IMG/VR virus record: IMGVR_UViG_2579778535_000007
Source: a virus
Taxonomy: Duplodnaviria; Heunggongvirae; Uroviricota; Caudoviricetes
Reading direction: 5' to 3' (one strand)
Length of the DNA stretch: 21,210 bases
Shown: piece after piece, positions 2,253 through 3,931 of the stretch
How positions within the stretch are numbered: position 1 is the first letter of the stretch
Layout of the letters: each line of letters opens with the position of its first letter
The notes under the pieces: model-generated
The model's input: the letters and a program-made list of their open reading frames with translations, nothing else
Database searches by the model: none
What the model was told of the DNA's origin: nothing
Program-made: the position numbers and the translations under genes

Positions 2253-2269
2253 AAATTTATTAGAGCAAA
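2253..2269 (-). promoter_or_regulatory. C1 repressor operator (16 of 17 match), upstream of the kilA-like gene (Op53-like)
   Basis: Minus strand reads ATTTGCTCTAATAAATTT, i.e. the P1 C1 operator consensus ATTGCTCTAATAAATTT (recalled from memory) with one extra T. It contains a -10-like CTAATA. Confidence 0.55.
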
Positions 2270-2347
2270 TTTTTCTGGCTCGATCCAGATCGGGTTGGAC
2301 GATCTGCTCAGAAACCTGCCAGTTTGCTGGCAGGTTTTTTTCTTTTG

Positions 2348-3382
2348 TTAACCTATTGCTACTGGTTTTAACAAACCAGCATCAAGTAGCTTGCGAGTTA
2401 ACCACTGCTGGCCTTTACCCGTTAATTGGGGCGTCAGCCGTATCTGGTAGCCATTTTCATCATCCAGCACCACTTCTTTCACTGTGAAATACCCGGCGTT
2501 GATGTACTGTTGGCGTGGTACGTTTTTGCGCGCACCAAAAGCCATGAGAATGCCGTTCTGGCGCAACCATGAGAAAAGGTCGTTTTGCTTAAGTCCAACG
2601 ACCTTTGCAAAGTTCCCGATCAGGATTCCATTGGCCACTGATACCCGGTCGGCAAAATCGACTTTAGGGGCTGCGGCCACCAGCTGTTGTTCCAACTGCA
2701 TTTTCTGTTCTGCTAACTCGGCAGCCAGGCGTAGGGCTTCTGGTAATGTTTGGGGGATCGATGGGGTAGGGGAGTTTGCCTGCTGCAATTCTTCCAGTTT
2801 GTCGATCAGCGAACGGCGGACCGCTTTTGACTCGCGCGCGGCAACTCGCAGGGCTTGTTTGTAGGTCATTGTTATAATATCTATTTCTGCGCCGTTTTTT
2901 TGACCTACGAAAATTTCGTAGGTTTCTCCTTCAAGTTCATCCTTAACTCTGGCAATGAAATCATTATTGCGAACTGGTTTTTCGCTACATAATTTCCGTG
3001 CCTCATTGACCATCTTCAACAATGTTTGGCTGTCGATTGTGTCTCCGATGTTGGGGATGACATTCACGGCTGGTGTTGGCGTAGCTGACGTAACAGGTGC
3101 TGGTTTTTCAATATTCAAATTTTTACCGGTCACTCTGTGTGCCTCCTTTCTCATTTCTGCTGCCACTGTTGCGTAACGTAGACGTCCTTGTTCAATCAAA
3201 TAATCCCTGATCTCGGCTATCAGTAGCCTGTTGATCACAGCCTTATCTGTTCGGGTATAAAAACGTCTGGTTATCATGAAATAGTTGGCAATTGCGCCGG
3301 GGATCTCCCGTGTCGGCATACAGGCAGTATGCAGGGCGATCGCTACGGCTATGTCATTACGGGTGACGAGAGGTTTTTTCAT
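2348..3382 (-). CDS. ant: Antirepressor Ant-like protein with a KilAC/ANT C-terminal domain (344 aa)
   Basis: C-terminal domain is paralogous to that of the KilA-like protein. The ATG overlaps the stop of the upstream icd-like ORF (ATGA), giving translational coupling. Third element of a c4–icd–ant-type operon. Confidence 0.65.
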   Translation of the reverse strand: MKKPLVTRNDIAVAIALHTACMPTREIPGAIANYFMITRRFYTRTDKAVINRLLIAEIRDYLIEQGRLRYATVAAEMRKEAHRVTGKNLNIEKPAPVTSATPTPAVNVIPNIGDTIDSQTLLKMVNEARKLCSEKPVRNNDFIARVKDELEGETYEIFVGQKNGAEIDIITMTYKQALRVAARESKAVRRSLIDKLEELQQANSPTPSIPQTLPEALRLAAELAEQKMQLEQQLVAAAPKVDFADRVSVANGILIGNFAKVVGLKQNDLFSWLRQNGILMAFGARKNVPRQQYINAGYFTVKEVVLDDENGYQIRLTPQLTGKGQQWLTRKLLDAGLLKPVAIG

Positions 3383-3600
3383 AAAACCCCCTGAACGTCG
3401 GCAGAGAAGGGGAGGTTCCAGTAACTAAGTGAATTGCGCGAGTTAGTTGAAAAACGGGCAGTAAAAATGCAGGGGCCATCAGGCAATTGAGAGCGTGCTT
3501 CGTCTTCTGTTGCTGCGATGACGAAGTGATAGTGGTGTTTTTTGCAGGAATAGAAACGCCAGATGAATTCTTGGCGTGCGCAAGGATTGGCATTAACCAT
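3379..3600 (-). CDS. icd: Icd-like small protein (cell-division inhibitor, 73 aa)
   Basis: 73-aa ORF with GAGG Shine-Dalgarno 8 nt upstream. Stop overlaps the ant start. Lies between a structured leader with a C1 operator and ant. Motif FIWRF…VIAATEDEARSQL…FTARF resembles Icd-like proteins as I recall them. Confidence 0.5.
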   Translation of the reverse strand: MVNANPCARQEFIWRFYSCKKHHYHFVIAATEDEARSQLPDGPCIFTARFSTNSRNSLSYWNLPFSADVQGVL

Positions 3601-3639
3601 AGTTACGGCCTCACAATCAGGTTTAACAACCTGCTACCC

Positions 3640-3820
3640 GCTGCTAAACAGGTGGCAGGACGTGACGGGGTTAGCAGACTGGCGATTGTGAAACCAGCAG
3701 GCCGAAGCCTCCCCATCACGCCCCACCATAATTTGGGCGTAACGCGGTTTTACGGACACAAAAATACCGCAATATCGGATATCTGCGGCTGTCCGCACAA
3801 TCATTCAGGCTGCTAAACCC
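3640..3820 (-). ncRNA. Candidate C4-like antisense RNA and its target repeats in the immI leader (boundaries not resolved)
   Basis: GCTGCTAAAC occurs twice (3640-3649 and 3809-3818); a complementary element GGTTAGCAG lies between them (3669-3677); a third partial copy CTGCTACCC (3631-3639) sits about 19 nt upstream of the icd Shine-Dalgarno on the transcript. Several GC-rich hairpins, for example TGCGG-CTGT-CCGCA at 3784-3797. This mirrors the a1/b1–c4–a2/b2 layout described for P1. Confidence 0.3.
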
Positions 3821-3914
3821 GGTCGCAGAATTTGCTACGACGGCGAAACTATAAGCCTGAACGATTAAAAGGTCAATATGATGCGAAAAGATAGCATTCG
3901 CGACTTAAAAATAC

Positions 3915-3931
3915 AAATTTATTAGAGCAGA
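3915..3931 (-). promoter_or_regulatory. C1 repressor operator (15 of 17 match), upstream of the immI-like operon (Op51-like)
   Basis: Minus strand reads TCTGCTCTAATAAATTT against consensus ATTGCTCTAATAAATTT. It sits in the AT-rich divergent promoter region. Confidence 0.5.

Follow-up and report, generated by a model that had tools for sequence, protein, structure and literature searches.

Orthologues of the C1 operators Op53 and Op51 ahead of the kilA-repL and c4-icd-ant operons on a P1/P7-type plasmid prophage contig

Two leftward operons lie at the left side of the window analysed here, which is the entire contig AYQQ01000068.1 (21,210 bp) of the draft assembly GCA_000503395.1. Their genes follow the order c4-icd-ant1/2-kilA-repL, as in P1, and icd, ant1, kilA and repL are all intact open reading frames (Table 1). 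DNA identity to P1 and P7 is about 98% over nearly the whole window, ranging from 95.9% to 98.8% among records. For positions 1-4300 the figure is 98.7% with phage phi456, about 98% with P7 and several P1 records, and 95.9% with the reference P1; for the pro-darB segment it is 99.3%. Positions 494-20127 align to P7 in three collinear blocks, and the leftmost 493 bp instead find their matches in other P1-like records. Identity and gene order are thus those of a P1/P7-like plasmid prophage, which points to kinship with Punavirus. The initial annotation, made from the sequence alone, had likewise called the element P1-like, and both the DNA identity and the orthologous C1 operators described below agree with this. 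It had taken the operators as the strongest evidence for that kinship, but the identity of about 98% across nearly the whole contig is stronger.

The contig ends on the left in a hok gene and on the right beside a gene encoding an EAL-domain protein. Following lxc is a gene for an AraC-family regulator (20170-20871, 233 aa) containing HTH_18 and HTH_AraC domains, where P7 instead has the restriction genes mod and res. In a related Escherichia fergusonii plasmid, an IS3 element is inserted near the position corresponding to 20988.

Table 1 Features of the window, with positions counted from its first nucleotide
Feature	Position	Strand	Description or basis
Truncated Op55/Orlf	488..504	-	First 11 bases ATTGCTCTAAT, then CTGGAG
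repL	508..1353	-	Lytic replication initiator; P1 counterpart contains oriL
kilA	1383..2183	-	266 aa; KilA-N and ANT/KilAC domains
Predicted antisense promoter P53as/PaskilA	2128..2156	+	TCGACA-17-TATATT; consensus scan 10/12
C1 operator, orthologue of P1 Op53/OrepL and P7 Op(rep)	2253..2269	-	TTTGCTCTAATAAATTT, identical to both annotations
Predicted promoter P53/PkilA	2259..2287	-	Transferred from P1 annotation via 99% identical alignment
Predicted terminator hairpin between ant and P53	2310..2339	.	Perfect 11-bp stem, plus-strand T-run
ant1	2348..3382	-	344 aa
icd	3379..3600	-	73 aa
C4 targets a2 (3641-3647, TTAGCAG) and b2 (3611-3618, GATTGTGA)	3611..3647	-	Ahead of icd; transferred from P1
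c4 antisense RNA (mature 77-nt form ~3651-3727)	3648..3733	-	Rfam RF01695, 69.6 bits
Upstream C4 targets a1 (3810-3816) and b1 (3795-3802), P7 type	3795..3854	-	Alignment, Rfam
Predicted promoter P51b/P1c4	3848..3876	-	TTGACC-17-TATAGT; consensus scan 10/12; P1c4 in P1
Predicted promoter P51a/P2c4	3888..3917	-	Transferred from P1 annotation
C1 operator, orthologue of P1 Op51/Oc4, P7 form	3915..3931	-	TCTGCTCTAATAAATTT, identical to P7 Op(c4)
Third, weaker operator-like site	14693..14709	-	ATTGCCCTAATGTATTT, 17.8 bits
lxc (immT)	19883..20131	+	Product 100% identical to P7 Lxc
P7 block 1	494-12111		repL through bplA
P7 block 2	12108-19116		proB, proA, 5' part of darB
P7 block 3	19116-20127		End of darB, olxA, lxc

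The minus-strand sites at 2253-2269 and 3915-3931 agree with the C1 operator consensus ATTGCTCTAATAAATTT at 16 and 15 of its 17 positions, with one and two mismatches, respectively. The consensus used in the initial annotation was correct. The identical asymmetric 17-bp sequence is quoted in PMC8546580, which gives the number of C1 operators carried by P1 as 22, and the P7 record annotates 21 C1 operators, of which it is also the majority sequence. The initial report of two near-consensus sites at these coordinates was confirmed in sequence, mismatch counts and scores, and each site does lie upstream of a leftward operon, the promoters concerned being those of kilA-repL and c4-icd-ant.

An AT-rich 17-mer might occur in AT-rich promoter DNA by chance, and the consensus does include a -10-like TCTAAT. 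However, a search of the window with ATTGCTCTAATAAATTT allowing up to three mismatches returned three matches against 0.12 expected from shuffles, and none of 100 shuffled sequences reached three. A weight-matrix scan, which the initial annotation had suggested as a check, gave the same picture. With a matrix constructed from 17 other P7 operators, the counterparts of the window sites being held out, the two sites scored 24.6 bits (2253-2269) and 19.8 bits (3915-3931), both above the best of 300 random windows, whose top scores had a mean of 12.6 bits and a maximum of 19.4, and both inside the range spanned by the annotated P7 operators (13.5-27.1 bits). In addition, both sites match, base for base, the operators annotated at the orthologous places. 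A chance origin was rejected on the shuffle counts, the matrix scores and this identity, and its probability is close to nil.

The site at 2253-2269 is the same 17-mer as P1 Op53/OrepL and P7 Op(rep), with the same placement relative to kilA. The P1 record labels its counterpart OrepL, controlling expression of kilA and repL. Over the surrounding 156 bp, identity to P1 and P7 is 99%, and the three single-base differences are confined to the flanks, touching neither the operator nor the promoter hexamers. The -10 of P53 (TCTAAT, 2259-2264) is contained within Op53, as it is in both phages, and its -35 hexamer, TGGATC, spans 2282-2287. In or just past this -35 are three GATC Dam sites (2282-2285, 2288-2291 and 2301-2304), and these are shared with P1, as are P53as and the terminator hairpin. 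P53as occupies the position of the annotated P1 PaskilA and points rightward over the kilA start and Op53. The hairpin is about 180 nt from the annotated P53as start, and it probably terminates an antisense RNA of about 180 nt and divides the two leftward operons. We compared 80 IMG/VR loci whose RepL is 93-100% identical (L008-L087). All 79 of 79 related loci have Op53, at a distance of 916 nt ahead of repL, and in 77 of them it is identical.

The site at 3915-3931 is the P7 form of Op51. In P1, Op51/Oc4 is AATGCTCTAATAAATTT, which begins with AA, whereas the window and P7 have TC. Homology between P1 and the window stops at these first two bases, and all DNA upstream differs. None of the 17 operators used for training has the C that the P7 form carries at position 2; this form scores lower, and its affinity for C1 may be lower too. 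Downstream, P51a, P51b, c4, a1/b1, a2/b2 and icd share their layout with the P7 Op(c4) and P1 Op51 regions. The -35 of P51a (3911-3917) shares 3 nt with Op51, and its -10 (TATCTT) is at 3888-3893. Promoter positions at the two operators were carried over from P1 through alignments of 97-99% identity. P51b, the stronger promoter of the operon and close to consensus, is the best minus-strand promoter match in the scanned region and begins 38 bp from Op51, outside the operator. In P1, P51b is presumably independent of C1, and the operator-promoter geometry suggests that P51b would be C1-independent in this element as well. The description of Ant as the sole antirepressor that can be expressed when C1 is present (PMC8198154) is consistent with this.

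The a1/b1 element upstream of c4 is matched by Rfam RF03163 (54.6 bits, spanning 3802-3854). The c4 loops CTGCTAA and TCACAATC are complementary to a2 (TTAGCAG) and b2 (GATTGTGA), respectively. Wherever P1 and P7 differ in c4, including its a' and b' loops, or in its four targets, the window has the P7 allele; by sequence, the immI specificity of the element is of P7 type, not P1 type. In 45 of 68 related loci, an exact-string test of the c4 recognition loops gave no match to the string of either P1 or P7, and many further immI specificity alleles may circulate in P1-like elements.

Ant1 is 90% identical to its P1 counterpart and 94% identical to that of P7, with a variable centre (approximately residues 150-170) that differs among P1, P7 and the window. 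The in-frame ant2 begins at 3133 (3131-3133) with GTG, where P1 and P7 have ATG, and its ribosome-binding site, AAGGAGG, is unchanged relative to both. Of the 73 related loci with a locatable site, 7 have a GTG start for ant2. On the other side of Op51, the place of P1 simABC is taken in both the window and P7 by genes for a lipoprotein and a DUF5384 protein (4213-5277). The match of the lipoprotein gene to TraT is weak (E 7e-5) and does not reach the Pfam cut-off. A promoter-like site on the plus strand (3946-3974) is located 15 bp from Op51, through which C1 might also affect the rightward genes beside this operator.

Two other operator-like sequences are present in the window. The site at 14693-14709 is 54 nt inside darB, upstream of the portal gene, and has the same sequence and position as the "hypothetical Op(pro)" of P7; P1 has the sequence too, without annotation. 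It was not accepted as a firm operator, since the coding DNA around it is in any case 99% conserved and since the P7 record alone annotates it, as hypothetical. The truncated Op55 scored 8.9 bits, under every annotated operator, and homology to P1 and P7 ends within it, at position 494. This truncated version is nevertheless the majority form, occurring in about 64 of the 80 IMG/VR P1-like loci, versus about 14 with the P1 form. The genes rlfA and rlfB, which are downstream of repL in P1, are replaced by an 84-aa open reading frame (212-466), for which there was no Pfam match, and a hok/sok cassette, in which the sok antitoxin RNA is at 25-199 (Rfam, 114.9 bits) and hok is cut by the left contig end.

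The immunity of P1 and P7 is tripartite, consisting of immC (c1, coi), immI (c4, icd, ant) and immT (lxc). In this system, C1 represses repL and the c4-icd-ant operon, C4 is needed, and Lxc also has a role (PMC8198154, PMC8546580). The C4 antisense RNA also holds Ant down (PMC8198154), and Lxc is a corepressor that strengthens the binding of C1 to its operators (PMC8546580, PMC8198154). Compared with this arrangement, the contig carries intact copies of immI and immT, with ant2 starting at GTG, and immC is off the contig. Neither c1 nor coi was found in the window by tblastn with P7 C1 (best E 1.5) and Coi (0.65), and the initial annotation had also seen no c1 gene here. This absence says little, because the window is one contig of a draft assembly and c1 lies approximately 15 kb past lxc in P7.

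From the identity and position of the two sites, their overlaps with sigma-70 promoter elements of early operons, the complementarity of c4 to its targets and the conservation in relatives, we conclude with high confidence that they are Op53 (OrepL) and Op51 (Oc4) of a P1/P7-type plasmid prophage, predicted to work through the C1/C4/Lxc scheme. By analogy with published work on P1 and with its GenBank annotation, C1 would bind and repress at both predicted operators. Produced from an immC region outside the contig, C1 would bind each asymmetric 17-bp site as a single unit. On Op53 it would cover the -10 of P53 and exclude RNA polymerase; with P53 off, kilA and repL would be silent and there would be no lytic replication from oriL. 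On Op51 it would overlap the -35 of P51a and block that promoter, while P51b would remain free and the operon leader would still be made. The C4 antisense RNA would be processed from this P51b-driven leader and would pair with a2 and b2, blocking translation of icd and ant, such that, via C4, no antirepressor would be made when C1 is present. Lxc would tighten C1 on the operators.

Two broader claims of the initial annotation hold only in part. The placing of both operons under one repressor fits kilA-repL and P51a, but P51b is left uncovered, C4 acts on Ant, and P53as bears on kilA-repL; the immI operon is under C1 in part only. The immunity circuitry had also been described as intact, which is the case for immI, in its P7-type form, and for immT with lxc, but immC is off the contig and there are large deletions elsewhere. 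An intact circuit is not demonstrable from this sequence, because c1 and coi are absent from the draft-assembly contig.

Compared to P7, the contig lacks P7 positions 23524-42703, about 19.2 kb, with the junction at 12108-12111 showing 4 bp of microhomology. The missing stretch comprises the 3' part of bplA, gp16, R, S, U, the C segment, cin, lydA-D, the darA operon, nmpC, ssb, lyz and the 3' part of proB. Its loss takes the tail fibre, invertase and lysis genes, truncates bplA and proB, and eliminates two operators, Op(ssb) and Op(lydC). In darB, a second deletion of approximately 1993 bp at 19116 shifts the frame, giving a product of 1495 aa versus 2255 aa. The 19.2-kb junction (12111) was present in none of 492 matching records from complete E. 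coli genomes and in none of 492 from PLSDB plasmids. The full set of virion and lysis genes that a functional phage needs is not present on the contig. Judged by its gene content, the element looks like a defective plasmid prophage and is probably a deleted, non-infectious derivative.

These losses bear on whether the operators are still in use. The sites might be relics passed down in a P1-like plasmid that is decaying and no longer has c1, binding nothing, with the operons silent or otherwise expressed. Such decay would be in keeping with the 19.2-kb deletion of tail fibre, lysis, ssb and darA genes, with the frameshifted darB, and with a junction that is in none of the 492 matching records of either collection. 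The window also contains no c1 or coi, but it is a single 21-kb contig of a draft assembly, and c1 of P7 is well beyond lxc. With the DNA so close to that of P1 and P7 (about 98% identity), the sites would persist even if unselected; operator conservation alone is then no proof of present function, and the sites could be recent relics. The genes under their control argue differently, since kilA, repL, icd and ant1 are all intact. Unrepressed kilA is lethal to the host according to the P1 annotation, and repL drives lytic replication (PMC8198154), so a plasmid with kilA and repL but no C1 would be expected to be strongly counter-selected. Because kilA, repL and ant are still carried, a continued supply of C1 is likely. 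We therefore consider it improbable that the sites are relics, and favor operators that still work through the C1/C4/Lxc scheme.

The DNA on the two sides of Op51 differs in its conservation among relatives. An operator at the Op51 position, at a matching distance from repL, was present in 67 of 68 related loci. Eight variants of Op51 occurred across these loci, with the core GCTCTAAT invariant in all. The 100 nt on the operon side of Op51 had a median identity to the window of 98%, whereas the 100 nt outside the operon fell into 7 unrelated groups, with a median ungapped identity of 29%. Column conservation rises from about 0.5 to about 1.0 at position 3 of Op51 (67 loci), and the operator marks a sharp boundary in the mosaic. 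Homology between the window and P1 breaks within two operators, after base 2 in Op51 and after base 11 in Op55. One reading is that C1 operators are joints of the P1-family mosaic, with some 20 dispersed GCTCTAAT cores acting as short homology patches for the swapping of modules. We think this unlikely; alternatively, the operators may merely mark the edge of a conserved operon.

The control of the P1 lytic replicon and of immI by these operators was worked out decades ago, and both operators are annotated in the P1 and P7 GenBank records. Both sites in the window are exact copies of long-known P1/P7 operators, and the observation is correct and already known. Its practical yield is the identification of the contig as a plasmid prophage of P1/P7 type whose secondary immunity is of P7 type and which carries lxc without c1. 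This derivative retains a host-killing gene and a runaway replicon, and it should depend on C1 made elsewhere in the genome.
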